Below, piece by piece: positions 3,001 to 39,000 of a stretch of DNA of 64,000 nucleotides. The notes beneath the pieces were generated by a model. It ran no database searches, had not been told where the DNA came from, and worked only from the letters and a program-made list of their open reading frames with translations. The position numbers were made by a program, and so were the translations under genes. This DNA is from Candidatus Omnitrophota bacterium. GTDB lineage: Bacteria; Omnitrophota; Gorgyraeia; Duberdicusellales; 4484-171. The stretch spans positions 69,464 through 133,463 of the forward strand of contig JBAWWL010000001.1 of NCBI GenBank assembly GCA_037146775.1, read 5' to 3'. Each line of letters begins with the position of its first letter. Position 1 is the stretch's first letter.

Positions 3001-6000
3001 CGAAGAATTGGATGAAGAGTTCCTGGCTAAGGTTTTTGATGGTATTGAAACCGCAGGCATTATGGGAAGGACTTTATTGGAAAGATGCATAAGAAAGCCT
3101 GTTTACTCAAAATTAGTTAAGGCGAGAATTAGGCAAGTGCAGATAACCCTCTTAGAGGGGATATTGGGAGATTTTTATTGGGATGTTCGTCCAATGGTCG
3201 CTTACGAAAAAGAGAGGGCCGGTATTGAGTGGCATACGCATCGTTTTAACAAAGATAACCACCTTAGTTTAGTTGACATAATTCATTGGGATAGGCCTAA
3301 TAAAGCAAAAATAGTTGTTACTGAAACAGCAGATGGCCAATCTTACAGGTTAGGGTTATATCGCCCCAAAAGTCGTAACGCCGTTAAGTGTGCGCGTAAA
3401 GATTATGATGCCCTTATAGATAGACTGGGCATAGAAGCTGCAGTGATAAATGAAGAAATACCCGAAACATATTTTTATAAACGTTATCTTAACCTTTTGG
3501 AAAGAGACTCGACTCAAGGTAAGGTTTCCTCGGCGGTAAAAAAATCCCGCATCGGACAAATCGTGGATTCATCAGCTAATTTTTCTTCAAGTCCAATCAG
3601 GAAGAAGCGCAATCAAGGTAAGGTAAAAAGAGATAAATCAACAGAAGAGTTTGAGCGTAAGCTTTTAGAAGCTAGGAGATTTTTGTGGCGATTGTCTCTG
3701 GTAGTTACTATTATTTTTGTGCCGATTATGTTATCGGTTTCAGCTAAAACTGCTTCAATTCTGGGTATAGCCATTGCAACAGTAAGCATTATTCTTGTAC
3801 TTACCAAATATATTCCGGCCTTACGGGCAGAGCATAAATGGGTTCTGGCCAGCGGTGTCAATGCCGCAACGGTTCAAGCTAATTGGTTTATCCGATTAGT
3901 GCGCAGCACCCAGCGTTTATTTACGGCGCTTACCTTGAGGCTAGGCATGGCAGTTGCCCGTTGTACCGGTGCTCGCGCGAAAATAGAAAATGAAATTAGA
4001 TTAAAGATTGCACAAGAGATAGCCGAAACCAGAGCTTCTCTTGAAGCCACATGCCAGGAACTTGCCAGGATACGTCAAGATTTAGATAGAGAAAGGCTGG
4101 AACTAGAGCAGGCGCGTACACGTCTTGATCAGGATAGACGTGATTGGGATAAGGCGCGCGCGGTAAGAGAGAAGGAAGTTACTCAGGCTCGTCAGACGCA
4201 AAGTGCTGCTGACCGGGCTTCCCATGCCGCTTGTGAGGCGCAAGAATCATTAATCCAGGCGCAAACAGAATGGGATAGAAGAAGACAATTAGCAGAAGAT
4301 GGTATTGCTCGGAGAATGCAGCAGCTAGCCTTACAGGAAGAAGAGTTAGTAGAGAGAGAAAGGCGACTTAGCGATGGGCAAGTAGATTTAATAAGACAAG
4401 AAGCAGCATTACAGCAAAAGGAAGAGGATTTAGAAAGGCGTCAACGCGCCGCTCAACAAGATTTAGATAGTCGGCATAACCGCCTTCGTCAGTGGATGCG
4501 ATCTCTCTTACGTCAAGGCAGATTCTTGGATCAAAAAAGAGCCAACGTGGATAGAGAAGAGCGAGAATCATTAGCTAGGGCAGAGGCTCTCAGGGTGCGT
4601 CAGGAACAATTATACCGACAGGAAGAATCGATTCGAACACAAACCAGAGAGCTTCGAGCTATGCAAGATATACTCATGCAGGATTTAGCAAATCTTACCC
4701 GCGAGAGGATTGCTTTAAGCGAAGAGGAACTTTCGCTTTCAGCTCGTTATGCCGAAATTGACTCTAGGATAGCACAGCTTAATACAAGGATTGCTTTGCT
4801 TGAGAGTATGCTTGGCCAGTGGCGCGAGGCAAGAAATTGGTTATTAAGCGAACAGCGCAAGCTAGACGAACAAGAAGATTCTCAAGGTGCGCAAGCAAGC
4901 CGCCTGCAAGCTTTAGCTGATGAGTTAACTCAGCGAGAGCAAGATTTAACCCGAGGTTTTTCTGATCTCGCCGCTTGGTGTACGCAGATGGAAAGATTGC
5001 AACAAGATCTTTCTCAGCGAGAGTCATTGCTTGTTGAGCGGGAAGCCCGGGCGCGAGACATTGAGGAAGGACGTTTACCTAAGGCTACAGATGAACTTAT
5101 CAGATTATTTGTTGAATGGCAGCAAAGAATCGCTATCGACCATACTTGTCTTTTTGAAAGAGAAGGTTTATTAATCCAAGAAATATTATCAAGTCTGCGC
5201 GCTGCAATATCTCTTTCTGCACGTCTTTCTGTGCTGGATTTTGTTCTACGAAACAGAATGCATGAAGCGGTAAATACGCTCTTAATAATTATTGTCGATA
5301 AACTCGATGAATCGTTTACCAGCGCATTATCTTCTACTGAAGAAGAAAACGTTATTTCTTTGTCGCGATTGATTGCGCCGGCATTATTAATCGTGGAGGG
5401 TATATCAGAACTCAGGCCAGCAGTAGATGGGGTTGGTATAGTCATTCCGCAAACATATACCGGTTTCCCCGCACGGATTTTAAGAGCACAGCGTTTTATC
5501 GAGGAGCGTTCGTATAGATTTGCCCAAGAGAGCCGTGATATTACAACAGAGGTAGAAAGTAACGAGGCATCTCTTACTAAAGGCCAAGCCTTAGTAATTA
5601 CGCATCGATTTAGCCGCCGACGCATTGTTTTAGAATGGAATGGTGAAACTGAATTTGTGACTTTTAGTCCAAAGCCGCTGGTTAAATTCACTCTTCATAC
5701 TCCTCTTGGCCTATGTCTTGTAAAGGGCCAGGAGTCGTATTGGTCTCGAGCTCACCAGCACCGCCCGCCTTTATCGCTGCACCAGAGACTTGCTAATCAC
5801 AGAAGACTTACCACAAGTGCTTCGGATACCGCTTCTGGAGTTTATAAAGAAAATGGCGTTGAATGTCTTAATCAGGCGAAAAAAGAAGGATCGTCTATAT
5901 ATATTTTTATAGACGATATGATTGAAGAATCAATGAACCACGGAATTGCCTTTTTGATTGACGAAATGGTGTGGCTATTGCGTTTACACTTATTAAGGAT

Positions 6001-9000
6001 GAGCGATGACTCTCAAACAGTTTTTGTTAGCGTGCATGACCCATATAAAATGTTTGAACAGCCATTAGTTATTACTAATGCTCGTGAGAGTTCATCTCCT
6101 TTAAGACAAATTATCGCTTCCCGGTCAGATTTTAGCGTTGAAGAAATAGCGGCGGTATCAAAAGTTTCTGCTTACGCTTTAGCCGGCCGTGATTTTGACC
6201 CGGCAAGAGCAATGTATTATATACCATTTTTACGCTTCCGGGCCAAAGAAACAGGTTATGCTAATGTGGTTAGTTATGTGCAAGCAATGACAGGGGGAGG
6301 CTCTTTATTACCGAAAGAGAGAACTGTGCGAAGGGAGCGAGATTATCTTTATGGCTGTTTCAATGGCTCTTGGGATGCGCATCCAGGCACATCCGGACCG
6401 GGCTTTGAAGAAAGAACTAAGAGGTTTCTTCTACAGCACATTAGAGATCTTTTAGGGCAAGGCAAGCAAGGAACTGGGAAGGTTATCCTTAAAGATATTG
6501 GTCCAGGCCGCGGTAAAATTATACCTCCGGAATTAGTACCATTGCTAGAATATTTAGCCAAGTTTATCCGTAGCCCTACAGGATGGGAACTGGTTATATA
6601 TGCCTATGATGTGCAAACCAGCCATTTGTTGGATTTAGAAAACCTATTGCTACAGCAACGTTTTCCTTTCGGTACAGTCCGGCTTAATTTTAGATATGCT
6701 GATTTAAGAGATAATAAACAGTTCCGCTATATTTGCCAGGAGCAAAGTGACATAAGTATCTTCCGTAACATCCCTGCGCCGCAAAATGCCCGGCAGCGGC
6801 AATATTTGCGTGATTTATTAAGAAGCCGGATTTCTTCTGGTGGTTTTCTCGCCTATAAAGTTTGTCAAGGAGAAGAACAGATTCTGGGTCCGATTGGAAT
6901 CGATCTCTCAGTTCCGTTTCCGAGTCAAAATCGCTTCAGCTTATTGCCAAAATTTAGTATCGGCAGTTTATTATCGTGGTTGCATGCCAGTTCTAGCCCG
7001 TTACAACAGCAAGTAGAAATAGAGCCGGTTAGGAGCTATCTGGCTAAATTAGTACTTAGTCATCCCGTTATTGGTCGTAACGACAGATTACGTAGTTTCT
7101 TTATGACTGCTATCCACCGAGTGAAAGAATATCCACATTTTGAAAAACTAAATCCTCAAGAAATCATAAGACGACCTTTATTTATTATGTTTTATCCTTC
7201 ACCCAGAAGAGATATGGATAGGTTAATCATTCCATATAATGTTGTTTCTTTAGCAAGTGCATTAGCAGCAAAAGAAATTAATGTAGTCTTGGCGCCCATG
7301 CCGGAAGAGTTTGCTGCTCCGCCATATTATCGTGAAAATCAAGTTAATGTAGAGCGCAGTTATCCTTTCTTGCACGATTGGCTGGTTATGCTCGTTCAAC
7401 GCTATGTAGATATATTCCGGGCATTTGGCTTGAGTAGCGATGAAGCAATGGAAAAAATAAATATCGGTATTTCTATGTTTGATGCCACTTACTTGGAAGG
7501 ATTAGCCTTAATTGAAATTACACGAAGAATTTTACCTAAAATACGTGTATTTGCCGGTGGCCCGCTCGTTTCCGCCGAAGGAGAAGCAAAAACAGCCCTT
7601 AAAGAAATGATGCATAATATGCGTCCTCATGGGCCAAATGTTTTGATTAATGGAGAAGCCGAGGAATTATTACCCGAAGTAGTTTGGAAATTAGATGGTT
7701 TAGCCGCCGATAAAGCTATTAGCGAATTAACCGCTCATCAATTTGATGATAAACAAGGATTAGCTTTAGCTTTTGCTGGCAGATGCTATGAATTTGGCTT
7801 TGAGAGGAAAAATTTTATTCCGCAATTCCGTATGGATACTTTGAGTTTTTATCCGGAATTTGTCGCTGAAGACGTGAATATTCTTTATGTCCCGGAGCGA
7901 GGCTGTCGGCGTAATCCGCGCTGCAGTTTTTGTTCTTTCACTATGGTACCGGGTGTACGTATGCCTCAATCCGAAAAAATCGTGCGTGAATTACGAGATA
8001 TCGACAGAGTTGTGGGCGAGTTTAAACAGGATTGGAGGGCAGGTGTTTTAAGCGGCAACTTTAGAAGTTTATATGATTTTCCGCTTTCAAGAGTAGACAG
8101 AGAATTTGTTTATCAGTTTAGCTGTGCAGTTTTAACAGAAATTACCGGCGATATACAGGCGTTAGGTGTTTTACCTGCTAATATTGCTCACCATCTTAAT
8201 TTTTGCAGGCAATCTGGGTATTTGGCACAGCTTATTCAAATAGCTACCGCGCTACATTTGCACTATCGAGTTGATATGTTGGTTATCCTGACAAACCTGG
8301 TAGCAAGTAATATTCTTTGTGAGAATAAAACACGATTAATCATAGAAGATGATAGCTTTTTACAGAGAAAAAGAATAGCTATGGAAGTAATACAAGCGCT
8401 TAAGACAGAACCTTTAAAAAACATATGTTTAATAGCTTTTCAGGCTCACTTGGCTGATTTCAATAAAGCGGGATTTGAGGGCGATGTTGCGTTAGCTCAA
8501 TTAGTGAGTGAAGTATTAAAAGACCTAGATCAGAGTATAGTAACTGGCTTAGAAAGCGGCAGTAATAAAAATTTAGGCGATTGGGGAAAAGGCTTTGATT
8601 GGCCATGGGCTTACCAACGTATTCGGTGGCTTGACGAGAGAAGTGTCCATGTTGCATTGAATATAATTATTGCTGGAGAAGAAAATGTTCCTCAAGAAAT
8701 AATCGAGTCTTTAGGTAATTTAGCCTATTTACTTTTGAGTACTCAATATGTAACTATTGCCTATGTGGCTCCTTTTGTGATGCCTTTAAGAGGTTCAAGA
8801 CTAGGAAGGAATTTTGACGCACGCAATCATTCCTGTGCTTTAGCTTGCGGTTGGGCAGAGAGGTATTTAGAAAAACCCATAGTTCTTATGGCTTTCCCTC
8901 GCGATGAAGTAGCATTAAGAGTGCTTATAGCGTACGAAGCAGATTTGAGGTCTTGTGCCGGTGCCTCAAGGGCTGAAACAGTAACAATTTTTAGGCGAGT

Positions 9001-12000
9001 CATGCAGGAATTAAGAAACACAGCGCGTCATGTGCAGCACCCGGATTTAGCTTTAATCGAAAGGGTATATAATGAAAAAGAAGAAATAGTTGTTAGCGTT
9101 TCTAGCCCTCTTAAGGGAACGCTATCCCAGTTAGGGGGGGATACCTGGAATATTGTTTCTTCCTCAATAGCGGTGCAAATTAAAAAAATTATTAACGAAA
9201 TAGAAATTAGTAATGATGATTCGCAACAAAAACGAAATGCTGAACAGTTGCAGCAGATTCTTCCTCAGGATACTAACCTAAAGCTGACAACTATCCAGGT
9301 GAGTATATTGATAAATGCCATAAAAAGAGCTACGGAGCATTATGCGCGGTTTAGCCTTGCTGAAGCTTTAGGCCAGGCAATACGTAACAATCCTATTTTA
9401 GTAGAAGAAACAATTATGGTTATCGGCCAATGCCAAGATTCTTCTGAAGTTTACTATTTTTCTCATGCCCTGCAAAAAGCTATGGAAAATAATTTAAGTA
9501 TTAAATTCTCCTTGCCTCAGGCCGGTATCTTGGTTGATGTTATTGTCAAGTTTGCTTATGCGCCTGTGCGTTTATTGCTTGGCCGTTGTTTGTTCCAGGC
9601 GCTGCAAAATGATTTGTTTCTAAAGCTTACAATTACACAAATTAAGTCATTACTTGAGGTCAGCAAGTTACCGGATACGCCGGATGCGCTCGTTTCTGTC
9701 TTAGGTCAAGCTTTCAAAAACGATCCTTCGCTGAAACTTGAGGTACCGCAAGTGCAAATTCTAGTTGATGGGCTTAAAAATGCAAAGCGTGACGATTTAC
9801 GGTGTAGCTTCTCCTTTGCGTTAGGCGTGGCAGCCATCAATCACCATCCTTTAGTTGCAACTATCATTGATGCTATCGATGGCTGCGATGATAATATGGC
9901 ATGTTACCGTTTCGCCAATTCCTTGGACCAGGCTTTAAGCAGCGACCGTTCTGTAGTGCTTGGTGATGATCAGGCACGTGTATTGGTTAAAACGTTAAAA
10001 CGTATATATGCTGCAAGTCATGTGCAGAGAGAAGCTTTACCTGGGCATATCGGAACTTTAGTTCGCTCTACACCGAGGGTTCAGGATGATAATATTGAGT
10101 TTATGTTTGTCACTGTTTTAAGCCGAGCGGTTTTTAATCGGCATGATTTATTTGTATTTTTGAGCGAGGTCATAGAATATCTATTAAGCATAGATATGCA
10201 ATATTTATTAAGACTTGTCGATGCTATTCATGCCGAAATTCTGTCTTTGTGGCTTGTGCCCGATAAAGTTTATGTTTATGTACAACTATTCTTGGCAAAA
10301 ACCGATTTAGTAACTGCAAAAATCCTGCTTTCAAAATATTTCGAGAAGTGTCCGCAAAACAAATTTGCTTCAAACTTAGCCGAGCGCGGTGATTATGACT
10401 GGCCGCTTATTTTAAGCACCATCGAACAGAATCTACTCATGCAGCCATGCTATCGTGATGAATGTGTGGCAGTAGTTACCAGCGCCGAGTACGACCAGCA
10501 GAAGCTCTTGGCGGTGATGCTTAAGCAAAGAGTCTATTGCGCTGATGCCAAACAGCGAGGGGTAGTGCCTTTGCCTGTTCTTTATACCGGAATCACCCTT
10601 TCCAATCTCAGCCAATATCTTGGCTATTATACCTTAGTCTGGGAAGAATTCAGGCAATTCATGGATGTTAACCATGGCTGGTTTCACCAGAATCCCGGCG
10701 CTTTTCTCCAAGATCCGGCAAGAGAAAACCTCAGACCGGCTAAGGCGTCAAGCGCGATAGATGCCAGCACACAAGTTCAGGGATATATCACTACCATAGA
10801 GATCGCTGCTACTAATAGCCAAATAATGACCGCCGCTCATTTTCTGATAGTCTTACTCAAAGAGCGGGAAGCTCTTACGTTAAGCCTTGCGCAAGCTAGA
10901 ATAGTTTTAGCTGCTTTTAGCCGCGTAAGTTATGATACGGAAGCCGGTTACTATCTTGCCTATGTTTTACGTACTGCTCAAGAAAGAAATAGTACTATCG
11001 TCTTTTCGCGTGACGAAGCTAAAATATTTGCTAAAGCCATCGGAGAACATCCGGAAGCCAATACCCGCACTATGCTGTCTTTTGCTTATGGCCGGGCAAT
11101 ATCTCGCGGTCCGCCGGAATTATTAACAGATTTATCCACTGCCCTTGAAGAAATCCAAGATGCCACCGCTATTAGATATTTGGTTTCAGCCTTTGAGGCA
11201 GCGCTAGAAAATAACACTTCCATTATCGTTTCAGGGGAAACAATGGATATTCTAATCAGCGTCAATAAGAGGCTAAAAAGCTCCGATACAACTTTAGCTA
11301 AAGTATTAGGTCAAATAATCATCCGTAACCCCGCATTACGGGAAAAATTGATTAATGCGATTAGGGGAAAGCAGGAGTCAGAGGTACGCTTTAATTTAGC
11401 GTATGCTTTACATAATGCGCTTGACACCAGTATCAGCATTCAACTTCCTGACAATGAAATTAATATTTTGGTCGATATTTTAAGAGGAGATACAAAGACA
11501 GATGAACGTTTATGGTTAATATCTGCCTTAGGCGTGGCTATTGTTAATAATCCTAAGCAGGTTGCTTTATTGATTACCGCTATTACAGATACAAGAGAAA
11601 ACAAAAAACGCTATCATTTAGTTTCTTCCTTGCATGCCGTCCTTAGTAAGGGAAAAGCCATTTCGCTTATATATACGCAAGCCGCTGTTTTATTGGAAAT
11701 TATTAAAGGAATTAATGAAGTAGATATACGTTCACGTTTTGCTGCCACTCTGGCTTTAGCTGCGGCTGACAATCAAGAGCTTGTCGCGCTGCTTAATCAG
11801 GCGCGAGATTATCTTATAAATATAAATGATTCTGATAGCATTATCGAAATCGTTAAGGCGCTTACTTTCAAAGCGCTTACCCATCAAAAAGCTGCCTGGT
11901 TTACGGTTCAGGAATTTTATTTCTATTTAATATTTTTAATGAGAAAGGCGCGCATAAATGAAGTAAAAGATCTTGCTAAACAATATCTTACTGCTTACCC

Positions 12001-15000
12001 CCGTACAGATTTTCATACCCTTGAGGCTACGCAAGAACAATCCGATTGGGTGCTTATTTTAAGTACTATCGATCGCCCTTTGCTCATGCAGTCATGTTAC
12101 CGCGATGAATATGTAGCGGTAGTAGTGAGCACCGAGCACGAAGAGCAGAAATTTTTAGCGGTAATGCTAAAACAAAGAATTTACTGTGATGATGCGGCTA
12201 CCAGAGGGGTGTTACCCGCGCCTATTCTTTATACCGGCATAACTCTCTCAAACCTTAATCAATACCTGAGTCATTACACTTTAATCTGGGAAGAGTTTAA
12301 GAGGTTTATGGATGCTAACTATGTCCGGTTCCACCAGAATACCGGCGATTTTCTTCAAGATCCGGCAAAAGAAAATCTAAGGCCAGTTAAAGCGTCAAGC
12401 GCGATAGAGCTAACTTCAGGGGAATGGGTAAAGAGATTCTTGGAAGCTGAGACAGAAGAAAAAAAGCTTGGCGTAATTCGTGAGCTAGGAATCGCTGCTT
12501 CTCAAGGCAGCCAACCCGCTGCTGAGGCACTTAAGGAAATAATTACTTCTCAAGTCTCTGAAAGTATAAAAAAAGCAGCAATCGAAGCATTGGCAGAGGC
12601 TATTGAGCGTGGCAGTCCGTGCGCCGTCACCGTCATGGAAGAGCTCGCTGATACTTTTAAAATAATAATCACCTCCCAAGCTTCTATGAGCATAAGCGCA
12701 ACAATTAGAGCATTAGGGTTAGCTGCTTCCCGTCGCAGTAAACCTGCCCTTGCCGCCATAGAAGAACTTGCTGATACTTTGGAAGAAATCATCGCCTCTC
12801 ATTCTGAAGGCGCAAAAGAAGCAGCAATCAGGGCATTAGGAACTGCTGTTGAGTGTGGCAGCCAAACTGCTATAACCGCCATAGGAAAGTCTTTTGGTGC
12901 TTTAAAAGGCGTTATTGCATCTCAATCTCATGAGATTTTAAAAGAGATGGCAAAGTCATTGCTTAGAGACTTTTTGCACAGTGATCAAAAATTTTTGGTT
13001 AAGGAGGCTGCCAAGGGTGAGATGGACTGGCCTATTATTCTAAACAATATCTATCAAAGTTTGCTCATACAAGAACAATACCTTGGTGACTATGTAGAGG
13101 TGGTAGTCAGCGCCGACCATGAAGAACAAAACCTTCTGGCAGTGATGCTAAAGCAAAGAATCTATTGTGATGATGCAGTTACCAGGGGAGTGCTGCCTGT
13201 GCCTGTTCTTTATACTGGAATAATTCTCTTAAGCCTCAGTCAATACCTTAGCCATTATACTTTAGCCTGGGGAGAGTTTAGGAAGTTTATGGATGCCAAT
13301 CATGCTTTGTTTCATGCTCAACCCGCCATGTTTAGCCGGGATCCGACAAGAGAAGAGCTGAGGCCAAGAAAAGATAGATCATCGAGTATACTAGAAAATA
13401 TACATAATGGTCCAAGCCCCCTTTTTTATTCTAGTCATAATTTGTTGGGGGCGTCAGTACAAAGTGCCTCCAGTCCAACCATAGATTATTCAAAGCTTTT
13501 AGATCCATCCGGACGCATTACCCCGGGATTATTATTTCAAACTGATGATTCTTATGTAACACACGCGAGAGGATTATTAACTCAAGCTACCGTTGATCCG
13601 CTTGCCTTATGTTGGGCAATTCTTACTTTAACGGTTAAATTTTTCCCTGACGGCTTAAACTGTTTTAATGTTTTGCCGCTTAGGGCAAGTTTATTAGCGG
13701 AGGATTATCATGGGTTATCCCAAGACCATAACTTCTCTTTTATGCAAAGATTATTAAATCAGGGGGTTGAGATAATTAGGGACTATAAGGCTATAACAGG
13801 TTACCAGAGTGAATTCGTTTCCAGGTTTCCGGAAATTATAATAACAGCATCTCAAGAGCATTTAGGTTATGTGCAGGGTAACCTGAATAATTTGCGAGGG
13901 TTACTAAGAATTGCTCCTTTTGTTGAATTAATAGACGGTTTAACATGGAATGCCGGACGGAATAATTTCGGAACACTTTTCCGGGATCAACTGTGCGTCG
14001 CTATGAGTAATGCTTCTGACTACGCAGGTAATCTTGAATTATTCGCCAAACTGACAGCAGTTCTAAAACAATCTAGCTCACCACTCGAAGAATACACAAC
14101 CAAATCCCTGCCTTGCCGGCAGGCAGGCCACCTCCGGGGTGGGCTTTGGTTGAAAAGCAAAATTCACACCAGTTCGCCACTTGCTCAATATCCGGATTCG
14201 GAGACGATGTATCAAGATATAAAAACATTTATTGAGCGCATCGATCCATATTTACATTATCAATTAGAACAGTCTTTATATGAGCGTCCGGGAAGGCTTG
14301 ATGGTTGGCCAATAGTTTGTATTACCAGTTCTTATGTCCTTGGTAACATTTTAGCCAGGTATTTTGGGGATAAATATGGCTTAGTTTTTGGTGGTTACGC
14401 GCCAAACAGAATTGATTTTATAATGACCGAAGCGGAATTTGTGGAGGTCGATGGTTATGTAAGTTCCGGTGATCAGGGAGCGTTGATGTTGGTTTTGGGC
14501 GGCCGCGACTATGCCTTAATTAATGTGATGTACGGTTTAATCGATCCAGATTTTTGCTGGCGCACGCTGGTTGATAGAATTGATGATTACCCGAGTAAAG
14601 AAGAATTACTCAATAGGCGCAAATTCATCTGGATTGACGAAGAAACAAGGAGAGAGTCGGGCGGCGATTCTCACGGAGTTGCCAGATGGGCCTGGGAGGG
14701 CGCCTGGACGATTGCTGATAAAATTGACTGGGAGAATGTTCCCCAGACAGAACCCATAAAAACTATCAGTGGTTTATTTAGGCCATTTTGCGGCCCTTCC
14801 AGTTCGCATACTGCCGGAGCTAATAGAATTGCTACTTCCGCAAGAGAAGTTTTCTTTGCGCATCAGCAAGATTTAGGCGAATTAACCGAAATTAATGTTA
14901 CGGTTTACGATTCATATGCGACCACCGGTACAGGCCACCAGACGGCAGAAGCTTTAATTGCCGGTTTGCTGGGTATGCGTATGGATAATCCTATGATGTG

Positions 15001-30000: not shown

Positions 30001-33000
30001 CGAAAACCCTTGCGGCGCGTCTATTTTAATAGAGAGCGTAGATAGTATTGATGATATTCAGGTTTCAGAAATAAATCAAACCCATTTCTGCCCTAGTATT
30101 ACTATCTCTGCTAGTTCGTCCAGCTCGTCGCTCGAAGAGGGTATAACCAAATCCCACCCCGGAGGTGGGCTTTGGTTGGATATGCCGCAACGTTTCAGTT
30201 CGTATCAGGATATCAACTCACGACTCACGACTTATGACTCACGACTAAATAAAACTAGCTCGCCGTTGTCAGCAAAAGAGCTTACGGTTGCAGAACAGGC
30301 TAAGCTTGTTGAAGCAGAACAAATTCTTGCCGCAAGAAGAGAGTCTGCGGATTTTCTCTCAAGAACATCTGCGTTATATCCGGGAATAGGCAAAACCACC
30401 GCTATCTTTAGGCTGATGCAGCAACTTTTTGGCGGTCAACCAAAAGAAGATGCTTATCTGCAGTTAACCTATCGCTGTAGTTTCGGTTGTGATGATTGTA
30501 TTGCTATTAAGGTGTTGCAAGGCTCCGGTAGAATAGAAGCCGATGAATCAACATTATATAGATTGCTCGATAGCCTTAAAGGATTCAAGCGGATATGGTT
30601 TGTTGGCGCAGGAGAAACTACTGCCTGGGGAAAAGAAAACTTATTCACGCCGAGAGTAAGCGATAAATTTATCCGGCTAATTCAGTATGCCTGTGACTGT
30701 GTTGGTCCTGGTGGCAGGGTGATGATTGTTACCAATACCTACCTTATTCCCGAAGAAGAAGCTTTGCAGCAGGAGTTTTTCGGCCGATTCCAGCGCGAGA
30801 ATATTACCTGGGTTGTGTCTGTCGATTATTTCCATGAAGAGAAACTACGCCAACATCACAATAAAGAATTAGCAGCGATCACTAAATCTATGGAAAAGCT
30901 TGCTTACCGCAGGTTTATTAAAACTGCTTACGAAATGAGATTTGTAAATTCTCATGATGAAACTTTACGTCAAGAGATACTTGAGCATTTTGGGCTATAT
31001 AACAAATACTTAACAAGCAGAAATGATTTTGCTATTCATGACCCGGTTGCCATGGGAAATGCCCAAAGTCTTTCCGGTGCGCGGCCACTAGATCTTGCAG
31101 CGCTCATCAAAGATAACCGCCAGCCTTCCAAGTTGGTTCTTTATGTTGATCCCCGGGGCAATGTCGTTACTTTACAGTTTGTCGCATATATGGAACAGAC
31201 AACTAAAGATATGTTGCACCAGGTGTCAGATAGCAAAGAGAAATTTGTTATTGGTAATATTTATGCTAAACCGCTTGCGGATATTATCGCGGAGGAGTTA
31301 TTACTAGGAAATTACCGTAGAGCCTATCGCAGAGATATGTATTATTTCGTGCAAGATAGAATCAGGCGGTCTATAAACGAAGAGAAGAAGGCAGAGACTT
31401 TTAATCGTTCCTTATCGTTTGTGGAGCGCAGTGTTGTCTGGTATGTACTGGGAGAAGTTGAGGTAGCCCGCGCTTATCTTAACGTACCATGTGTTACCCC
31501 TGATTTGCGCTTGAATGTTTTGGATACGGTTTATCGTATACTTCTTGAGGCTAATAGCATTGACGCGGTAAGTTTTACCCGTGATTGTTTCCCGCAAGAA
31601 TTTAATGCGGAATTCCTTAAAGAGAACGGAGTTGAGCTTGGCGATGCCATGGCCGTTCTTTTTTCTGACCGGTCGCTACGCTTGGCTATGGAATATAGTA
31701 ATCATTTTAATGTATTAAGTGATTGGTGCGGTTTTCCTCGGATCTGGGCGAACTCTATTGATGGACATAAATTATGTTGTCCTGTCTATAGGTTCGAGTC
31801 AGTAATGCACCATATGAGTTTTCATCCAGGCAGAAATCTGGGGGTATGGCAAATAACTCCAGTTGCGCCTGGAGGAGAACATATTGAGATTAAATTAACG
31901 CATGGTTGCAATAACAGTTTACGCATTTACCGTGAACACTACGCACTCGACCATGCTGGTGTCGGCTCGCACTGTATCGGTTTAGCTACCGATCAATATG
32001 CTACTTCTTACTATTGCATGGTAGAGGATTACTCCGCTATGCAAGATTTATTCTTTGTTATTCAACAGGCAGTTAATGCTAACAGGCAGTATCAACGGTT
32101 AGCGAGCGTTTGTCGTTCGCTCGGTGAATTTTCTGCGCGTATAGATCGTGCCGAAATTTCTTTTAATAAAGATTTTCCGCAAGCGCCTGCTGTCATGGTT
32201 ATTGGGCAAAGAGGAATAAGAGAGGATAATCAAATCGCAATGCGCCAAGACGGTACTTTTGTGATTGCTGATAGATATATACTTGCGCAAGAACCCCAAG
32301 GGCAAAAGGCAAGTGTACAGTTAAAAACCATAGTGGTTAATTTTGCGGCAGCTTGTGCCGCACAATTACCTGCAGAGAGTGTGGAGTTGGTAAGGCAAGT
32401 GTCCGAGAGCGCTTTTGGTGATGGGTTCGCCCGTGGTTATGCTTCAAGCGCTATAATCTCTGATAACGATGTTGGCTCAGCCAACTCACCGTTAGTAGCT
32501 ATGCAATTTTCCGTAACTTTTGATAAAAGAGCCATTTTTCCGGATTCAAATGGCCGCGATAATAAAAAAACAGGAAACAGAAACAATACAAATTGGTTGC
32601 GGCGGGATCGGGGCTGGCCTACCTTTCCGTGGCTGGCGGAGGCCAACTTCCCTGCCGTACCTTCCCGTTTACGTTTTACATTGCCTATATATATAGGTAA
32701 GGGTTTTAGGCAGCCAGATAGCCGCGGCCCGCCAACAGGAGTCTCTAATTTATCTGCTTACTCGCTCGCCAAAAATTTCCCCGATAATCAATTAAGTTCA
32801 CCCCTCAGCTGTTCCTCGGAGGCCTTAGGAAGAGTTCGTAATGCTTTGTCCGGACGAGAGTGGTATTCTGGTCATGAAGAATTAGCTAAAGGAATGGTAG
32901 ACGTCTTGGTGGCAGCTTTTCAGAGTAAAAATATTGATCCTTCCAACCGTTTACGTTACGGAGTTATTCCTGTGATTGGTGCTGCTAAAAACTTGGACAT

Positions 33001-36000
33001 ATTTATTCAGTGCATGCAGGCTGCTATTGATATCGCCCAGCATATTGTTACGCCGGGAGAACACGGTATTGATAAATGGTTTGGCCCGGATGCGGCTTTT
33101 GCCGTAGATTTTGAAATACCGGATTGTGCTTATGGTACAAGTGGGTCGAATGACTTAAGAAGTAGACTAGCCGCAATACAAACAAAAGCTGAATCTAGGC
33201 TATTAGTAAAAGCAGCGAAATTATCCTGGAAGCAACATTTTAGAATTGGGCGTAATTTAGGCTATACCAACTGTATACATTCCGGCCCCCTTGGCCCATC
33301 TTGGTCTCCTGGATCGGTTGCTTACGGTATAGCGGCTATTGGTGCCTACCATAAATTTATTCATAACTATAGTACGGTATTAGAAGATATGCTTGTAGGA
33401 AATGGCGAAGCTGTGCAATTGATGGCAAAATTAAGCAGACATATTCGTTCGCAAAGAGAACTTATCTATCAAGGAAACCTTCGTCGTTCAGAGGATTTTG
33501 TCGCCGGAGTTACTGTGCGGGAATGGCAGTGGGATGAAGAATGGTGTCTATACCCGGAATTAAATCTTCAGTATAACGCAGTAGTTAGCACTATCCAGAG
33601 AATAAAACATTTTGATCAGGTGGTTATGCGTATTATAGGTGATATTACCAGTGTTTATCGAATGAAGAGAGGAAAATTTTCCTCTTTACCGCAATGTGAA
33701 GAAGAGGCAATACTAGCGCGGGAATATCTTGATTACATAAAGCGCCAACATTGGGATAGCAGATATCCTTATCTTTGGCCGCCTGTGTATCGTGCGGTAT
33801 TTTTACTGGATTATTTAGGCAAATATATTGATTGTAACGGAGAATCCACACAGGAGATTATAAGAACCGGGCAGGCGCTTGATGTCGGTATTGAATGGCT
33901 TGCTACTAGTGGAATGGAGGTACCAAGTTGGTTTGTTCGCCAAAGAAAGATTATTGAGTTAGCAGAGCAATATGGTGTACCGCAAACTCCCAAAAAATAT
34001 TTGACCATACTACAGAAAGCTTTGCAAGAACCTACTCCTTTAGGCTGTGACCAAGTCTGGCACGCACCAATAGATTTTACAGATTGTGTAGAAACTAAAT
34101 CAGCGTCAGTAATCTCTTCGACAACAGAAAACATTGAAGAGCTGGTTGTTATCGGGGACGTACACGATAATGTATCTGGCTTAGCAATATTGCTTTCGGA
34201 TATACGCCAGTATTATCCCAGAGCTCGTATGATTTATTTGGGGGATTACGCGGATAGTTCTGATGACAAAGCTGATCCCCGGGAAACTGTACGGGTAATT
34301 AACTCTGAGAAGGAACAAGGATCGATACCTATTTTGGGTAATCATGATTTTGCCATATTGCGGGCAGTAAAAGGTGACAGAGAGAAATTCGTTTGGTGGC
34401 TGGATAATAGAGGAGTGCATACTTTTCACAAAATACTTCGTGTAACGCCTGTTTTTGACGTATCCGTTGCCGGAGCAGGGCTCACGGTTGACGAAAGCCA
34501 GGTAGCACAGGCGCTTAAAAAAATGCAAGAAAACGAATTTTTCCAACTTCTGGCGCAAAATTACAGTGAATTGCCTTTATTTTACCGTAATGATGCTTTG
34601 GGTATACTTTGCCTCCATACTGGGCCAAGCCTTGAAGTCAGACAGCTTAATATTGTACAAGACACCAAGAGCCTAGAGGTATTGAATCGATCTTATACGA
34701 TTAGAAATTATAATCAGCGGGATGTTTGGGAATTTCTCATGTATAAAGGATGGCATAATGTGAAAGAAGAAAAAGTTGAAAGAGCGTGTAAACTTTTCCA
34801 CGCGCCCTACCTCGTTCTGGGGCATATTATCCAACGTAAAGAACCGTTTTACCGGCGTATCGGCAATGCTTTTATGATCGATAATAATCTTCAAGGCTAC
34901 CTGTTTGTTTCTAGAGAAAGAGGAATAAGGTTTATACGTCTTTTGTCTGATTCAGCCCGCGATGAAATAGCACTGGTAAGTGCTTCCGAATACACCCAAC
35001 GTTTAGCTGAATTTAGGAATTTAGGAGATACCCACGCGTCTTCCGCAATAGAGAATTCACAACGCCCCGTAATGAAGAAAACGATAAGAGTAATGCGGCT
35101 GTTGTCTGTGGTAACAATACCAATAGCTGCGATTATGCTTTCATTTTATTTTGGTGGTTGGTATATTATCACGGTTAAATCAGGGTTTTTTACCGCTCTG
35201 CTTACGATGTCTATCGTCGGCGGTATTTCGCGTGGTTTGGGAATGTACGTTAACCAAACGCTTAAAGGAGAACATTTTAACCGTAAAAACGTAAAGAAGA
35301 TATTGCGTTGGGCATTGTTTGGAGGGTTGTATTTAGCGATATTTGTCTATGGTGCATGGTTCTATATTTTAAATACCTATATAACCGGCATTTTTGCGAA
35401 TATATATTTAGAGGCAGCTTTAAAAACCTTCCTTGATGTAACGCTGTTTGCCGCATTTGTCGGCCTGCCGGCAAATTTCTTTATCCACAAATTTTTGGTG
35501 TGTTTGAACAAAGAAGAAATAAATTGGAAAAATACCAAAGAAAAATTTAAAAAATTATTTATTTATAATGCCATTTTCTGGATTTTGGGATTAACTCCCG
35601 GATGGATTTGGTTTCCGCAATACATTGTCCTTATTGCAGCAAACTTGGGAATACTATATTCCGGCATATTGATCTATTATCTTGAGGAATGGCTAAGAAC
35701 TAGCGACAAGAAGGTTGCTAATAAAGTTTTTGTTCAGCCAAAAGATAATCAAGCCCCACATTCCAGCTCGCCGGTTTCAGGCAAAGAAAATATTAAAGCC
35801 AAAAAGCAGGGATTAAGAACTTGGTTAAGAAAGAATTGTATGTTAGAGGATTGTGATGAAGCGCTTAGGGAATATCAAACTCAGTGGTGCCCGGCTGAAG
35901 TTGCTTTAAGAAAAATTAATCGCGATATTGGTGTAGATTCTGATAGCCCACGATATCTTTATCGTTACAGAGGACAGGCTCTGATGTTTGACGAATTGTG

Positions 36001-39000
36001 CGTAGTAGCTACAAAAATAATGGAAGTAAAACATACAATCAGAAAAGAAATTGATTACTCTGTAAATGTTTGGGAGACCATTGAATTTGCTTTTGATATT
36101 GCGCGTTCAAGAAGCAAGCATAATTACCTTGCGGTTATTTTTGAATTGGTGCCTGGTAAGCATGGCGTAACGGGTTGTTCGACGCATCGTGATATTGATC
36201 CAAGAGCTATCCGCCGTGTGTTTGTCTATAACAAGATTACAGAGCATTTCGAAAGGGTTTACAAAAAATATTTAACACAAAAATTACGCCATGCCAGTTC
36301 ACCAAACGTTAATGATCCATTGGACAATCTTTTATTGGCAAGAATTGCTCTTGATGATGCTTTGGCCGATGAAATCAGCCTTTATGTGAGTAATTGTTTT
36401 GTTAACATAGGAATACGCAAAAAATTCAGAGGTAATCTTGAGTGGGTGAGAGATTGTTTGCAATCAATCGCAAAAAAGATAAAAGGTGGGCAGTATTCTT
36501 TACTAAAGGCAAAAAGTCGTATCAAGGAATTACAATTAGTTGACACGCTTAAAAATTTATTTCACCTTGTTTTAACAAGAGATAAAGATATCTTTTTGCA
36601 TTTAAGCGATGAGCAAGTCCGTAAGATGGCTGGTGATGATGGGCATCTGCGGGTTGCGATCGACTTTATGTTTTTATTTTCCGAAAGCTTAGCTTCAAGC
36701 TCTAGTGTTTTTGCACATGATTCTCACTCCATACTCCATACTCAATACTCAATACTAGATAAAGCCAGTTCATCCTTACCAGAAAATGCTTCGCCGCGCG
36801 CTCCTCCTGAGCTTGAGGATTTACTCAAAATAGAAACGGGTTTACCGCATTTACTTTCACAATTCTTCTTAAAGAACCGAGTAATACTTGCCTTATTAAC
36901 CGCGCTCACTCATGCCCTTGGATTTTTATTTCTAGGAATGGCAAAACATTCACTTTATCCTATGCAGCTTGCTTTTTGGCTCTTTTTCTTCAATTTATTT
37001 ACCGCCTGCATAGTATTTTATCTTTTAGCAACTAATAATAGCTCGCAAAGTACTTTTAAATTCTTTTTTAGTCTTTTTAAGGTGCTACGTAAAAAAGACT
37101 TTGTGCACCTATTTTTACCTTCATTTATTAATGTTATAAGTTCCATTATTTTATATTTCATTTTTCCTTATGTCCCTGGAGCAATCATACTGACATTTTT
37201 ACAATTAACTATGTTTACCGCACTTCCTTTAGCTTTGCTTTATAATGGCGAAAGAGAAGGCTGGGGGAGAAAGATTGTCGGTGTTTCTATAATTGCTATC
37301 TTAGGATTATTGCCTATGCTTGCCAGCGCCAGTCTTTTTAATTTATATGCTTTATATGGAATTGTCATCGGACTTATGTATGGATTGATTACTCCTTTTG
37401 GCCGCAGGCTTTATCAGGATGTATACCGCCGCGCAGTAGTACAAGATAAAGACGCGCAAACTTTATTTGTTAATCTTCCTTATTTTACCATGGTAATCAG
37501 CTACGCAGTGGGTTTGCTGGTTATGGCACTTACAGTATTTTTTATTTTTCCGACGCCGCTGCTTACTTTTCAAGGAACTTCAATAATTACCGGCCGTATC
37601 CTATTGCCATTTTTTATAGGGATTACATTTTTTATCGGTACCTGGATTTGTGCCTTAAAGTTGCAGCAAATGTTTACATACAATATTTCGAAATATTCTC
37701 CCCTGACTGCATCTGGGCCAATGTTCAGTAAGCTTATTGAGGACGGCATTATGCATGGTGGGCTACTGCATCTTGAAATGTACCCTTCGTTACTTCCACC
37801 GCTTGCGGTAATTCTGGGTGCCTTTATTGCCGCAACCGGAAAGAACAAGAAAGATCATCTTTCGCAAAATAGTATGTCAAATATCGCCAAACAACAACTA
37901 ACTTCAGCTAATTCAGCTTCTCGAAGCTCTTCGAGTGTAGGAGAATCTTTTGTGGCCACACCTACTTTAGATAAAAATACTTATTTCGTTGGCTCGCCGA
38001 GAGGCAATTTGGTAAGAATCTCTGTGTCTGTTTCAAAAATAAGAGCAGTAAATGCTTTATATCGTTCACAAACAGATCCTACGCCGTGTCAGGGAGAGAA
38101 AGCTTTAGCGCAATTGGCAGCTTTTCCCGAATTTCCACACAATTATAATTCGCGACTCACGACTTATGAATCACGACTAATCTTATTTAAGGCAGACCAG
38201 TTTCGTCGCATTGCGAGCGGGACGAGTTCCCCGCTTAGTTTAGAGGATTTGGATTTAACTACGCAGAGCTTACTCGGCGAAGGCAGTTACGGAAAGGTTT
38301 TTAAGGTATTTCAGCGCTGTGCCGACACAGTGTATGCTCTCAAGGTTTATTGTGGTAGCTACCCTCATCAGCCGGATGAGCGGATGCCTTTAATCGATTA
38401 TTTGTTAGATTTTTCTCTTCGATACCCACAACTAACCAGTCGCGGTGCTATGCCACGTTGTTATACTAAGGGAGAGTGTTGGTTGAAAGAAGATAGGATC
38501 GTTGAGGTACCTAACGGGTCTTGTGTTTATCCTTGTGTTATTATGGACTATATTCCCGGCGAGAGCTTAGAGGCGCGCTTAGGGCAGGAATGGCGCACAA
38601 GAGGGAGTTGGCAGCATTGGATTAGTATTCAAGACGCCGTCGAACGCGAGTATGCCGGACTTGCGCTTTTAGAAATATTCGATGTAGTCAAGGCGAAACA
38701 GCTTTCCATTATCAAGGAAAAATTGGAACTGGCATCACGTATCGCGCAAGCAGTCAGTGCTTTCCATGCGGCTGAGATAGTTATTAAAGAATTAAAACCC
38801 GACCATATCATCTTAGGACCAGAGGAAGCGATAGCTTTGGTTGATCTTGAAGGTGCAGTTCCGGTTCATTATGATTGGCAGGAAAACTCGCGTAATATTC
38901 CGCGGGCAGTACGTCGTACACACACAAGAGGGTTTTCGGAAAACCCTGTTTTGCTACGTAGCGATGACCCTACTGTACTGGGAGAGCTAAAAACCATGCT

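Follow-up and report, generated by a model that had tools for sequence, protein, structure and literature searches.

Conserved membrane modules and a boundary motif in an internal section of a giant Omnitrophota-type gene

A giant reading frame with scattered enzyme domains

The window, that is, the whole 64-kb stretch of DNA analysed here, is one unbroken internal section of an Omnitrophota-type giant gene and spans more than 21,000 codons (Table 1). Frame +2 (nt 2-64000) has no stop in 21,333 codons, against 827-1901 stops in each of the other five frames, and the GC skew is positive over the entire window. The uninterrupted length exceeds the 10,000 codons taken as the minimum for Omnitrophota giants. 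The closest relatives of the reading frame are all giant ORFs of Candidatus Omnitrophota, and every named relative of three different window segments comes from a Ca. Omnitrophota MAG. The true protein N-terminus and any signal peptide fall outside the window.

Table 1. Features of the reading frame (aa numbering from the start of the window)
Feature	Position (nt)	Residues (aa)	Strand	Basis
Giant ORF, internal part of multi-enzyme protein	2..64000		+	21,333 codons, both ends open
SSP site opening the hairpin/coiled-coil cassette	3587..3595	1196-1198	+	Motif
TM helical hairpin, two hydrophobic helices with a 3-residue turn (SAK)	3680..3808	1227-1269	+	KD, Hessa
Coiled-coil-like region, ~400 aa	3950..5146	1317-1715	+	Composition, heptad score, weak profile hits
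Cassette A	25691..26443		+	Flanking SSP sites (aa 8564; aa 8806/8812)
Module A, six hydrophobic segments	25757..26326	8586-8775	+	KD/Hessa, charge bias, homology
Module B, six segments, paralogue of A	35090..35683	11697-11894	+	Identity to A, Mpv17 profile
Punctuation variant ASSS	36764..36775	12255-12258	+	~35 aa upstream of module C
Module C, eight strong TM helices and a marginal ninth	36881..37840	12294-12613	+	KD/Hessa, family copies

As in other members of this protein class, many distinct enzyme Pfam domains are combined with interspersed transmembrane (TM) helices and no repeat dominates; at least 14 different Pfam domain types and 22-23 hydrophobic segments, the latter in four clusters, were counted in the window. 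Upstream of module A, Pfam detected an Fe-S serine dehydratase, SAM methyltransferases and HATPase_c. Downstream of module C, it detected a protein kinase, a P-loop kinase, HAD, B12-radical SAM, ART-PolyVal, an RmlD-like epimerase, a B12-binding domain and an M23 peptidase (aa 19707-19793). Cofactor-dependent enzymes flank every membrane module on both sides. The preliminary description had placed about 20 kb of enzymes with cytoplasmic cofactor requirements between the coiled coil and the first polytopic module; the Pfam domains confirm this in part, and most of the chain has no Pfam match. A divergent SecA-DEAD and/or a C39 or S8 peptidase domain is reported in most full-length Omnitrophota giants (West-Roberts et al. 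2023, bioRxiv 10.1101/2023.11.21.568195; Nielsen and Lui 2026, bioRxiv 10.64898/2026.06.07.730766). None of the three was found in the 64-kb window (Pfam, E ≤ 0.01), which is part of the gene, and Pfam revealed no dockerin domain there either.

Four clusters of hydrophobic segments are membrane modules

Hydrophobic clusters were called with the Kyte-Doolittle (KD) and Hessa scales. Both scales support clusters at the positions given in the preliminary description, namely a hairpin and modules A, B and C, and beyond these four only isolated hydrophobic windows were detected. In composition-shuffled chains, the loose threshold gave about 12.7 isolated hits per 21,333 aa, so that the eight strong helices of module C, packed inside 260 aa, lie far above chance. 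In tblastn comparisons between giants, module C aligned at 53-55% identity and the A/B-type modules at 44-50%; the domain at aa 399-811 also aligned, a kinase and an HATPase did so weakly, and nothing else did. The order of the modules varies from one giant to another. The four clusters are real, conserved membrane modules, and the proposal of multiple membrane-embedded platforms within one chain was borne out in the form of discrete polytopic modules that keep their intramembrane polar residues.

The hairpin helices have KD values of 2.15 and 2.29 and Hessa dG values of 1.6 and -1.0. In the following coiled-coil-like region, R, E, L, A and Q make up 66% of the residues, and 371 aa are free of proline. 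Its heptad score of 0.38, against a background of 0.19, exceeds the 95th percentile of the remaining chain, and weak matches to SMC and RNase_Y_N (the RNase-Y coiled coil) were obtained. These elements had been described as an N-proximal TM pair plus coiled coil. Both are present, but since the ORF continues beyond the window in both directions, "N-proximal" can refer only to the start of the window.

Modules A and B resemble the Mpv17/PMP22 family

Modules A and B are paralogues, as had been proposed: they are 47.6% identical over 267 aa (E = 3e-69), and FGGLYLAIF and F/Y-x-x-K-x-LVCLN occur in both. The suggested search for conserved polar residues inside the helices was successful, as G-x-G-x-Y-x-x-Q, D8693 and N8762 are intramembrane and conserved in the A/B family. 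Three of the six A/B segments are marginal in hydrophobicity (dG 3-5, Hessa). Module A consists of an extra N-terminal helix, TM1 (aa 8586-8607), and a core homologous to Mpv17/PMP22 (aa 8609-8773, nt 25826-26320); the Mpv17-like core of module B is aa 11720-11892. A punctuation variant, ASSA (aa 11680), lies ahead of module B, and an SSP site (aa 11922) lies behind it. An A/B profile run against 1.84 billion proteins found only 19, the named ones being partial Ca. Omnitrophota proteins. A/B-type sequences, 216-233 aa long, also occur as separately called proteins; these short "stand-alone" homologues come from contigs 0.7-6 kb in length and could be fragments or result from miscalled starts.

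Profile comparisons indicate that A and B are remote homologues of the eukaryotic Mpv17/PMP22 channel family (PF04117; MPV17, PXMP2, Sym1, plant PMP22) with an additional N-terminal helix. The weakest two library hits of the A/B profile (library-wide E = 2e-5 and 8e-4) were both PF04117 proteins, and when the profile was rebuilt without them, the family member P0017 scored at 43 bits. With hhalign, A/B matched Mpv17/PMP22 at 97% probability (E = 8e-11), and in BLASTP module A aligned to residues 7-175 of P0019 (182 aa). Reciprocally, an Mpv17 profile gave A and B 34-35 bits (34.7 for B), as compared to at most 5 bits for 446 controls. An unselected canonical profile of human MPV17 and yeast Sym1, both verified as Pfam members, matched A/B at 80% probability over 136 columns (E = 1.4e-5), with reversed controls at 0.2%. 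Single canonical members alone scored no better than shuffles in hmmsearch and were not significant. The PF04117 model itself matched neither A nor B even at E ≤ 10, nor any of eight A/B-family members at E ≤ 1. Homology to bona fide Mpv17/PMP22 members is statistically supported over most of their length, with no match to the PF04117 model at its gathering threshold.

The A/B core of approximately 165 aa, which aligns to almost the whole length of family members, has five hydrophobic segments, as do the bona fide members P0017 and P0019. Common positions are G-x-x-x-Q following helix 1, F-G-G, W-Y-x-x-L, K-x-x-L-D-(Q/L)-T-x-F, whose Asp is intramembrane, and a W in the final helix. On the other hand, the relationship is a very distant one (21-27% identity), and A/B are bacterial, carry the additional conserved helix and reside inside a giant chain, whereas the family consists of free organellar proteins of about 20 kDa (~180-200 aa). 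Characterised Mpv17/PMP22 members are non-selective solute channels of 1.4-1.8 nm that close at high voltage (PMC6767901; PMC4117752). Homology raises the possibility that the A/B modules, like Pxmp2, Sym1 and MPV17, assemble into oligomeric gated solute channels. Of the two roles suggested previously, the transporter-like one is therefore supported in part, by this remote homology, while nothing supports the lipid-modifying one. Structure prediction, proposed for the six-helix module, was run for the A/B-type and C modules; both AlphaFold models were poor and offered no structural confirmation, the former (pLDDT 52.6) being too poor to judge an oligomeric channel and the latter (pLDDT 50) unusable. 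A fold search for the A/B type gave no informative result.

Module C represents a family found in Omnitrophota giants

Module C had been thought to contain about ten helices. We found eight to nine: eight have Hessa dG values of -2.1 to +1.2, and the marginal ninth segment has a value of 5.3. Copies occur in four Omnitrophota giant ORFs at 54-56% identity, and the searches suggest a family with no detectable relatives outside these ORFs. Neither the window copy nor a five-member profile matched Pfam, NCBIfam or PDB sequences, no internal repeat was found when a 5+5 arrangement was looked for, and the module did not fall into known transporter or membrane-enzyme families (DMT/EamA, MFS, MBOAT, UbiA and others). 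Conserved features are a 43-aa loop (KLQQM-TY-S...PL-ASGPM-SK-E-G) and, after the ASSS variant, a RAPP element that is invariant in all five family members. The dip in GC and AT skew at 36-38 kb is consistent with the T-rich codons of module C.

A Ser-Ser-Pro motif marks cassette boundaries

SSP is the most enriched tripeptide in the chain. The punctuation motif [A/V/S/T]-SSP-[L/V/Q] was observed 51 times, as compared to 4.5 expected by composition and 12.8 for SSP under a dipeptide-preserving model. Pfam envelopes contain no SSP site at all (5.4 expected). Of 38 module boundaries defined independently, 42% have a site no more than 25 aa away, where 11% would be expected by chance; 0 of 2000 randomisations matched this value. 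In other Omnitrophota giants, ASSP was observed 22 times with 0.74 expected, and the motif position is conserved around the A/B and C modules. Each TM element starts 14-35 aa past a punctuation site, behind a K/R-rich stretch; at the hairpin, 12 K/R occur in the 30 aa right after the site. The SSP motif is a marker of cassette boundaries.

Membrane topology of the chain

In modules A and B, the loops contain 2-7 K+R on one side and 0-2 on the other, and in module C 2-5 and 0-2, an alternation kept in all family members. The C-flanks of A and B are K/R-rich, as are both flanks of the marginal ninth segment of module C, the C-terminal-side one in 5/5 family members. This conserved charge bias suggests crossing numbers of 2, 6, 6 and 8 for the hairpin, A, B and C, respectively. 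All of these are even; therefore, the chain would be back in the cytoplasm after each module, and every enzyme region would be cytoplasmic. Even crossing numbers would probably resolve what had been posed as a membrane-topology puzzle.

On this basis, we consider it reasonably likely that the chain is a string of cytoplasmic enzymes tethered to the cell membrane by modules that cross it an even number of times. It would comprise dozens of cassettes, mostly enzymes, linked by a short Ser-Ser-Pro punctuation peptide. Four of them would open with a membrane element: the hairpin with its coiled coil, the two six-helix paralogues, each with a divergent core of the Mpv17/PMP22 type behind an additional N-terminal helix, and the module of eight helices and a marginal segment. 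Enzymes dependent on ATP, SAM, NAD(P), B12 and Fe-S would thereby be held at several points at the inner face of the cytoplasmic membrane. Among the pieces best conserved between giants, and with their intramembrane polar residues kept, the polytopic modules would be more than passive anchors. The presence of enzymes on both sides of each module fits the "TM-only, cytoplasmic-face" class, to which one of the two preprints assigns 46% of long Omnitrophota proteins.

The boundary motif can also be read as a cleavage signal, so that a single translated chain would be cut at [A/V/S/T]-SSP-[L/V/Q] into dozens of proteins. Independent membrane proteins would result (Mpv17-like, ~240 aa; C, ~390 aa; an anchored coiled-coil protein), and topology would place no constraint on the whole chain. 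The enrichment of the motif here and in other giants, its avoidance of Pfam envelopes, its clustering at module boundaries and its conserved position around A/B and C are all compatible with cutting, as are the separately called A/B-type proteins, and a TM element behind a K/R stretch shortly after each site resembles the N-terminus of a free membrane protein. However, Ser/Pro-rich inter-domain linkers are common and do not require cutting, the motif may just as well serve as a flexible linker or as a target for modification (e.g. for proline-directed phosphorylation by the embedded kinases), and the short homologues have the uncertain origin described above. The window revealed no protease whose specificity would fit the SSP sites, and no such protease is known. 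Although West-Roberts et al. (10.1101/2023.11.21.568195) proposed cleavage on other grounds, describing the cleavage points as unknown, we regard a processed chain as unlikely.

An odd crossing number in at least one module would place long stretches outside the cytoplasm. M23 peptidases normally act outside the cytoplasm, and the M23 domain in the chain speaks against an all-cytoplasmic set of enzymes. If the ninth segment of module C spanned the membrane, in line with the higher helix count given originally, the 8,700 aa downstream, including M23, would be extracytoplasmic. For A/B, the four TM helices with which Mpv17/PMP22 proteins are conventionally depicted (PMC6767901) plus the extra helix make five. 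Sidedness of this kind agrees with the "extracellular effector" interpretation published for Omnitrophota giants, much of whose content is predicted to be extracellular by TMHMM or DeepTMHMM in both preprints, which themselves call such localisations unreliable. Against it, the kinases, B12-radical SAM, NAD-type ART, NAD(P) RmlD-like and B12-binding domains downstream of C need cytoplasmic cofactors and reducing conditions, the ninth segment is marginal (dG 5.3 versus ≤1.2) with a K/R-rich flank in 5/5 members, and the C-flanks of A and B are likewise K/R-rich; we judge this arrangement quite unlikely. Insertion of the Mpv17-like and C modules into a host or prey membrane, as pores or conduits for enzymes or host metabolites, is purely speculative and very improbable. 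According to the preprints, Omnitrophota depend on hosts or are predators and have reduced biosynthesis; characterised Mpv17/PMP22 members are wide non-selective pores (PMC6767901), and the effector-like ART-PolyVal and M23 domains are of kinds seen in injected polyvalent proteins, but the window contains no delivery apparatus, signal or toxin-translocation domain, and the positive-inside signatures match ordinary co-translational insertion.

Comparison with known systems

The TM-rich architecture of Omnitrophota giants is already known from the two preprints (10.1101/2023.11.21.568195; 10.64898/2026.06.07.730766), a design that the preliminary description, correct as to the clusters, had not recognised. 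The chain shares with these "multi-enzyme metabolic cluster", TM-only giants a reading frame unbroken over more than 10,000 codons, many enzyme domains without a dominant repeat (methyltransferase, HATPase_c, HAD, radical SAM and others) and interspersed TM helices amounting to about 2% of residues. The preprints count TM helices without analysing modules, West-Roberts et al. left TM regions out of folding, and Mpv17, linkers and a boundary motif go unmentioned in both. Three points appear to be new: the homology between A/B and Mpv17/PMP22, the C family and the SSP punctuation motif.

Two analogies may be drawn with other multidomain chains. The polyvalent proteins of phages and conjugative elements reportedly also combine heterogeneous enzyme domains in one chain, including ART-PolyVal-type ADP-ribosyltransferases, methyltransferases and M23. 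They are said, however, to be much shorter, to lack internal polytopic TM modules and to enter recipients together with DNA, whereas the window has no visible mobile-element context and scans for viral contigs gave no matches. Nidovirus replicase polyproteins (coronavirus pp1a/pp1ab, with TM modules in nsp3, nsp4 and nsp6) reportedly are long chains of cytoplasmic enzymes with several internal polytopic TM modules, in which even crossings keep the enzymes on one side, some predicted hydrophobic segments do not span the membrane, and short conserved junction motifs separate the cassettes. The likeness is one of analogy only: the sequences are unrelated, the viral chain is demonstrably self-cleaved whereas cleavage of the Omnitrophota chain is hypothetical, and the Omnitrophota chain is cellular and at least three times longer.

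One giant reading frame and its enzyme content

Frame +2 of the six-frame translation (nt 2-64000) contains no stop in 21,333 codons, as compared to 827-1901 stops in each of the other frames, and is open at both window ends. It follows that the window comes from the interior of a gene longer than 64 kb. To our knowledge, the giant genes of the Omnitrophota are the longest known genes, and the window offers three handles on whether their products work as single chains, on their location and on the way they are manufactured. The preliminary description placed a transmembrane (TM) helix pair and a coiled coil in an N-proximal position: they do lie near the window start, which, in a reading frame open at both ends, is not the N-terminus of the protein. 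The sole complete ORFs of at least 150 aa in the window are antisense to the giant ORF, one of them spanning, on the other strand, the coiled-coil region's C-terminal end and its immediate downstream sequence. Both are treated as chance ORFs, which they probably are, opposite the coding strand.

A Pfam scan of the whole frame +2 translation matched a heterogeneous set of enzyme domains (Table), and most of the chain has no Pfam match. The L-serine dehydratase beta and alpha domains are both complete and fused in-frame, as a housekeeping-type metabolic enzyme inside the giant. The ART-PolyVal and M23 domains recall the effector content of the "polyvalent proteins" of phages and conjugative elements. 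Internal cassette duplications are found at 26-59% identity, beyond the paralogous TM modules described below, and the chain seems to have grown partly through such duplication.

Table. Positions of the features in the window (aa, frame +2 translation) and of counterparts in other giants
Feature	aa	nt	Basis or remark
Unannotated domain	399-811	1196-2434	counterparts L003 16073-17299; L004 15092-16306; P0002 1410-1818
Hairpin	1227-1269		two helices, 3-residue turn between
Coiled coil	about 1317-1715
Fe-S L-serine dehydratase beta + alpha	4925-5377	14774-16132	Pfam; SDH_alpha 177-180 bits
SAM methyltransferases	about 5714-6137		Pfam
HATPase_c	6916-7050		Pfam
Module A	8586-8775		six segments
Radical SAM	about 10150		Pfam, weak match
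Module B	11697-11894		six segments
Module C	12294-12613		eight helices, dG -2.1 to +1.2; marginal ninth segment, dG 5.3
Protein kinase	12843-13081		Pfam
P-loop/guanylate-kinase-like domain	13147-13289		Pfam
HAD	13345-13539		Pfam
B12-binding + radical SAM	17332-17692		Pfam
ART-PolyVal ADP-ribosyltransferase type	18434-18564	55301-55693	Pfam, weak, E = 2e-4
Peptidase M23	19707-19793	59120-59380	Pfam
RmlD/epimerase fold	20584-20825		Pfam
Second B12-binding domain	21183-21290		Pfam
Example SSP sites		3587-3595; 25691-25699; 26417-26443; 35765-35773
Extended SSP elements	852, 9215, 10086, 15840, 16131, 19411	about 2555, 27644, 30257, 47519, 48392, 58232
Internal duplication	3089-3590 / 3662-4139 / 4317-4461	9266-13384
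Internal duplication	5627-5912 vs 16769-17053	16880-17737 vs 50306-51160
Internal duplication	7239-7451 vs 7657-7865	21716-23596
Internal duplication	15076-15192 vs 18586-18696	45227-45577 vs 55757-56089
Internal duplications	15437-15733 vs 19925-20221; 15742-15846 vs 19312-19417	46310-47539 vs 57935-60664
Antisense ORF facing the coiled-coil end		5014-5691 (-)
Antisense ORF		26260-26775 (-)
A/B-type module in other giants			L002 20108-20854; L003 13547-14227

TM helices are gathered into discrete modules

TM segments were assigned by two independent scales, Kyte-Doolittle and the Hessa apparent free energy (dG), and both place hydrophobic clusters where the preliminary description had seen them: a two-helix hairpin, two six-segment modules (A and B) and a third module (C). 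Elsewhere in the chain, hydrophobic windows are isolated and occur at about the density of composition-shuffled chains (12.7 per chain at a loose threshold), and the clustering is therefore far from chance. The estimate of about ten helices for C was too high, as the hydrophobicity scales yielded 8-9 segments, whereas the paralogy of A and B was borne out by self-comparison (47.6% identity over 267 aa, E = 3e-69). The coiled coil following the hairpin was also recovered: R, E, L, A and Q make up 66% of it, 371 residues are free of proline, the heptad score lies above the 95th percentile of the remaining chain, and Pfam and NCBIfam give weak matches to SMC and RNase-Y coiled coils. At E <= 10, these two libraries returned only coiled-coil noise for all four TM elements.

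The alternation of membrane modules and enzymes, which had been presented as a topology puzzle, is thus a real observation, and its interpretation there was partly right, but the architecture is the known one of its class, since two preprints already describe TM-rich Omnitrophota giants. West-Roberts et al. (10.1101/2023.11.21.568195) reported that TMHMM and DeepTMHMM give conflicting results and that certain of the localizations predicted look very improbable, and left the TM regions out of structure prediction. Nielsen and Lui (10.64898/2026.06.07.730766) found TM helices or a signal peptide in 94% of 916 long Omnitrophota proteins, and classed 46% as "TM-only", proteins predicted to lie mostly on the cytoplasmic face. 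In neither preprint are the TM segments treated as modules, nor are Mpv17, linkers or a boundary motif mentioned. New here are the modularity and conservation of the TM elements, the remote Mpv17/PMP22 relationship of the six-helix paralogs, the orphan 8-TM family, the even-parity argument for cytoplasmic cargo and the cassette-boundary motif. As discrete conserved module families rather than scattered anchors, the TM helices can serve as markers and be studied individually.

Modules A and B are remotely related to the Mpv17/PMP22 family

Pfam and NCBIfam did not recognize A or B. An exhaustive search of 1.84 billion representative proteins with an A+B profile matched only 19 proteins; those with names are "partial" proteins of Ca. 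Omnitrophota, which take up the whole of short contigs. The two weakest matches, P0017 (library-wide E = 2e-5) and P0019 (E = 8e-4), are unambiguous members of the Mpv17/PMP22 family (PF04117, E about 1e-20 to 1e-22), with 33% full-length identity to human MPV17 and yeast Sym1. P0017 scores 43 bits with a 20-member A/B profile free of Mpv17 sequences, and BLASTP aligns aa 8609-8773 of module A to residues 7-175 of the 182-aa P0019. With a profile of two Mpv17 proteins, A and B reach 34-35 bits, as compared to at most 5 bits for 446 shuffled, reversed or module C controls. An hhalign follow-up of this link gave 97% probability (E = 8e-11, 134 columns).

Since P0017 and P0019 came from our own search, the canonical MPV17 and Sym1 were tested as well, with sequences verified as PF04117 (82 and 98 bits). 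Taken alone in hmmsearch against A and B, each gave a non-significant 7-8 bits, equal to the best shuffle; a two-sequence MPV17 and Sym1 profile aligned in the same register over 136 columns with 80% probability (E = 1.4e-5), as compared to 0.2% for the reversed controls. On this profile evidence, A and B are remote but genuine Mpv17/PMP22 homologs that fall below Pfam's membership threshold, and they bear one extra conserved N-terminal TM helix as compared to the family.

Members of the Mpv17/PMP22 channel family have been described in mitochondria and peroxisomes, and one is encoded by a human disease gene, for which we know of no solved structure. Through A and B, a bacterial lineage is linked to this family. 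Its characterized members Pxmp2, Sym1 and MPV17 form non-selective channels, 1.4-1.8 nm wide, which high voltage closes; drawings of the family show four putative TM helices, and homotrimers are predicted (PMC6767901; PMC4117752). A PDB sequence search with the A/B profile found nothing, and the only Foldseek matches in the PDB were generic helical bundles (E > 0.9); the AlphaFold2 model of A, from an alignment of window sequences only (depth 2), has a pLDDT of 52.6.

The family alignments of A/B and of C contain many invariant positions. Positions conserved to at least 80% among 20 A/B-family members include several Gly and Pro residues and a G-x-G-x-Y-x-x-Q motif closing TM2; they also include Asp8693 within TM4 and Asn8762 in TM6, the outcome of the check for conserved polar residues inside helices that the preliminary description had proposed. 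Conservation of this kind points to a functional membrane domain rather than a generic anchor.

Module C is an orphan family

Neither the window copy of C nor a 5-member profile matched Pfam, NCBIfam or PDB sequences, and Pfam gave only noise on the five members (EamA, E = 8.4 in one member). Word-index searches found no homolog of A, and none of C or its 5-member profile among the 8000 candidates considered; these negatives reflect the sensitivity of the tool rather than absence, since A/B relatives did turn up in the exhaustive profile search. Besides its eight strongly hydrophobic helices, C is marked in the family alignments by invariant polar residues, both within helices and in short loops, and by strong conservation of the 43-aa loop (KLQQM-TY-S-PL-ASGPM-SK-E-G) that precedes the marginal ninth segment. 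Judged from sequence, C is a new, orphan 8-TM family. The AlphaFold2 model of C (window sequences only, alignment depth 1) has a pLDDT of 50.

Two relationships were rejected, as hhalign gave below 1% probability both for an internal 5+5 repeat in C and for kinship of C to A/B. A resemblance to MBOAT-like N...H spacing (N62, H100) was dropped because no MBOAT model matches. GC skew is positive along the window except in the 2-kb bin at nt 36001-38000 (-0.013), which coincides with C. GC content (0.376) and AT skew (-0.10) are likewise at their minimum there; this dip fits T-rich Phe/Leu/Ile codons.

The modules recur in a different order in other giants

In contig pattern scans, four contigs matched module C patterns, three of them from Candidatus Omnitrophota MAGs and one from a metagenome; in three of the four, 21 kb is again one unbroken ORF. 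A+B alignment patterns found none in genome, viral or metagenome contigs. When the window chain (21,333 aa) was compared by tblastn to the ORFs of the other giants, each of about 7,000 aa, only a few pieces aligned: module C (53-55% identity), the A/B-type module (44-50%), an unannotated domain of ~410 aa (54-56%) and, weakly, the kinase and HATPase. These pieces differ in order between giants. The A/B-type module lies 9 kb (contig L002) and 2.5 kb (contig L003) downstream of C, whereas B lies 1.2 kb upstream of C in the window. The ~410-aa domain, which has no Pfam match, is downstream of C in the other giants and 12,000 aa upstream of it in the window, where it is flanked by an SSP-type site (see below) at aa 400 and by others at aa 836 and 852.

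The enzyme neighbours of the A/B-type module also vary (APH kinase, LigT, guanylate-kinase-like P-loop, radical SAM and fn3 in L002, L003, P0005, P0008 and P0010). In a small sample, the guanylate-kinase-like P-loop follows the module in P0008 and is also downstream of B and C in the window. Three matches of 216-233 aa (P0009, P0013 and P0014) are A/B-type modules called as short separate proteins on contigs of 0.7-6 kb, and are candidate free-standing genes or fragments.

Charge bias and even crossings suggest cytoplasmic cargo

Topology was derived from local K+R counts of the loops, which alternate strongly in a pattern kept in every family member. In A and B, each loop or flank has 2-7 K/R on one side and 0-2 on the other, which would fit six crossings with both flanks inside. 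The "inside" loops of C carry 2-5 K/R and the "outside" loops 0-2, and the marginal ninth segment is bordered by K/R-rich sequence on both sides, the preceding loop and the following flank. It would be most parsimonious for C to cross eight times, its ninth segment being interfacial or re-entrant. The hairpin, preceded by a 30-residue stretch with 12 K/R, is predicted to cross twice. Crossings of 2, 6, 6 and 8 would bring the chain back into the cytoplasm after each module, and the even numbers agree with the ATP-, SAM-, NAD(P)-, B12- and Fe-S-dependent enzymes that flank every module. The extra conserved helix before the five-segment Mpv17 core looks like a parity fix.

We infer from the even parity that the enzyme cargo is cytoplasmic. 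This argument is local and independent of the N-terminus, and yields a prediction where the two preprints are uncertain. Against it, several TM segments reach only marginal values (dG 3-5), the usual drawing of the Mpv17 family has four helices, and published predictors often put giant-protein content outside. A cytoplasmic M23 peptidase would also be unusual, and is the main misfit for an all-cytoplasmic topology.

A short peptide motif punctuates the chain

SSP is the most enriched tripeptide of the chain, with 51 occurrences as compared to 4.5 expected from composition and 12.8 under a dipeptide-preserving model; ASSP and SSPL are enriched about 40-fold, and the surrounding consensus is [A/V/S/T]-S-S-P-[L/V/Q]. 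No site falls inside a Pfam envelope (5.4 expected). An SSP site lies within 25 aa of 42% of 38 independently defined module boundaries (11% by chance), a value reached in none of 2000 randomizations, and every TM element begins 14-35 aa past an SSP-type site. The motif is also enriched in other Omnitrophota giants, and its position around the A/B and C modules is conserved. Six sites bear an extended element of ~25 aa, x-SSP-x3-NS-x-L-x-T-Y-D-S-R-L-N-K-x-SSP-L, a double SSP with 20-aa spacing, which looks like a conserved short linear motif or a docking or cleavage element. It is the peptide that is under selection, since its codons vary: five or six different Ser codons encode either Ser.

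Three roles are conceivable for SSP, as linker, as modification site or as processing site. In the last case, the whole-chain topology problem would disappear. Carried further, the giant ORF would be a cellular polyprotein, an "operon in one reading frame" cut at the SSP junctions, including the extended form, into dozens of proteins, among them free Mpv17/PMP22-like channels and the new 8-TM protein, with the cassettes shuffled between giants as units. We consider this unlikely. West-Roberts et al. stated that cleavage points are unknown (10.1101/2023.11.21.568195), and the SSP motif supplies candidate cut or linker points of the kind they lacked. For structure prediction, the sites can divide giants into cassettes, and they also lend themselves to the design of proteomic cleavage tests.

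A DNA-level recombination scar as the origin of SSP was rejected because of the codon variety. TCG-CCG is nonetheless over-represented: TCG encodes the second Ser at 39% of sites as compared to 11% in the background, and CCG encodes Pro at 51% as compared to 31%.
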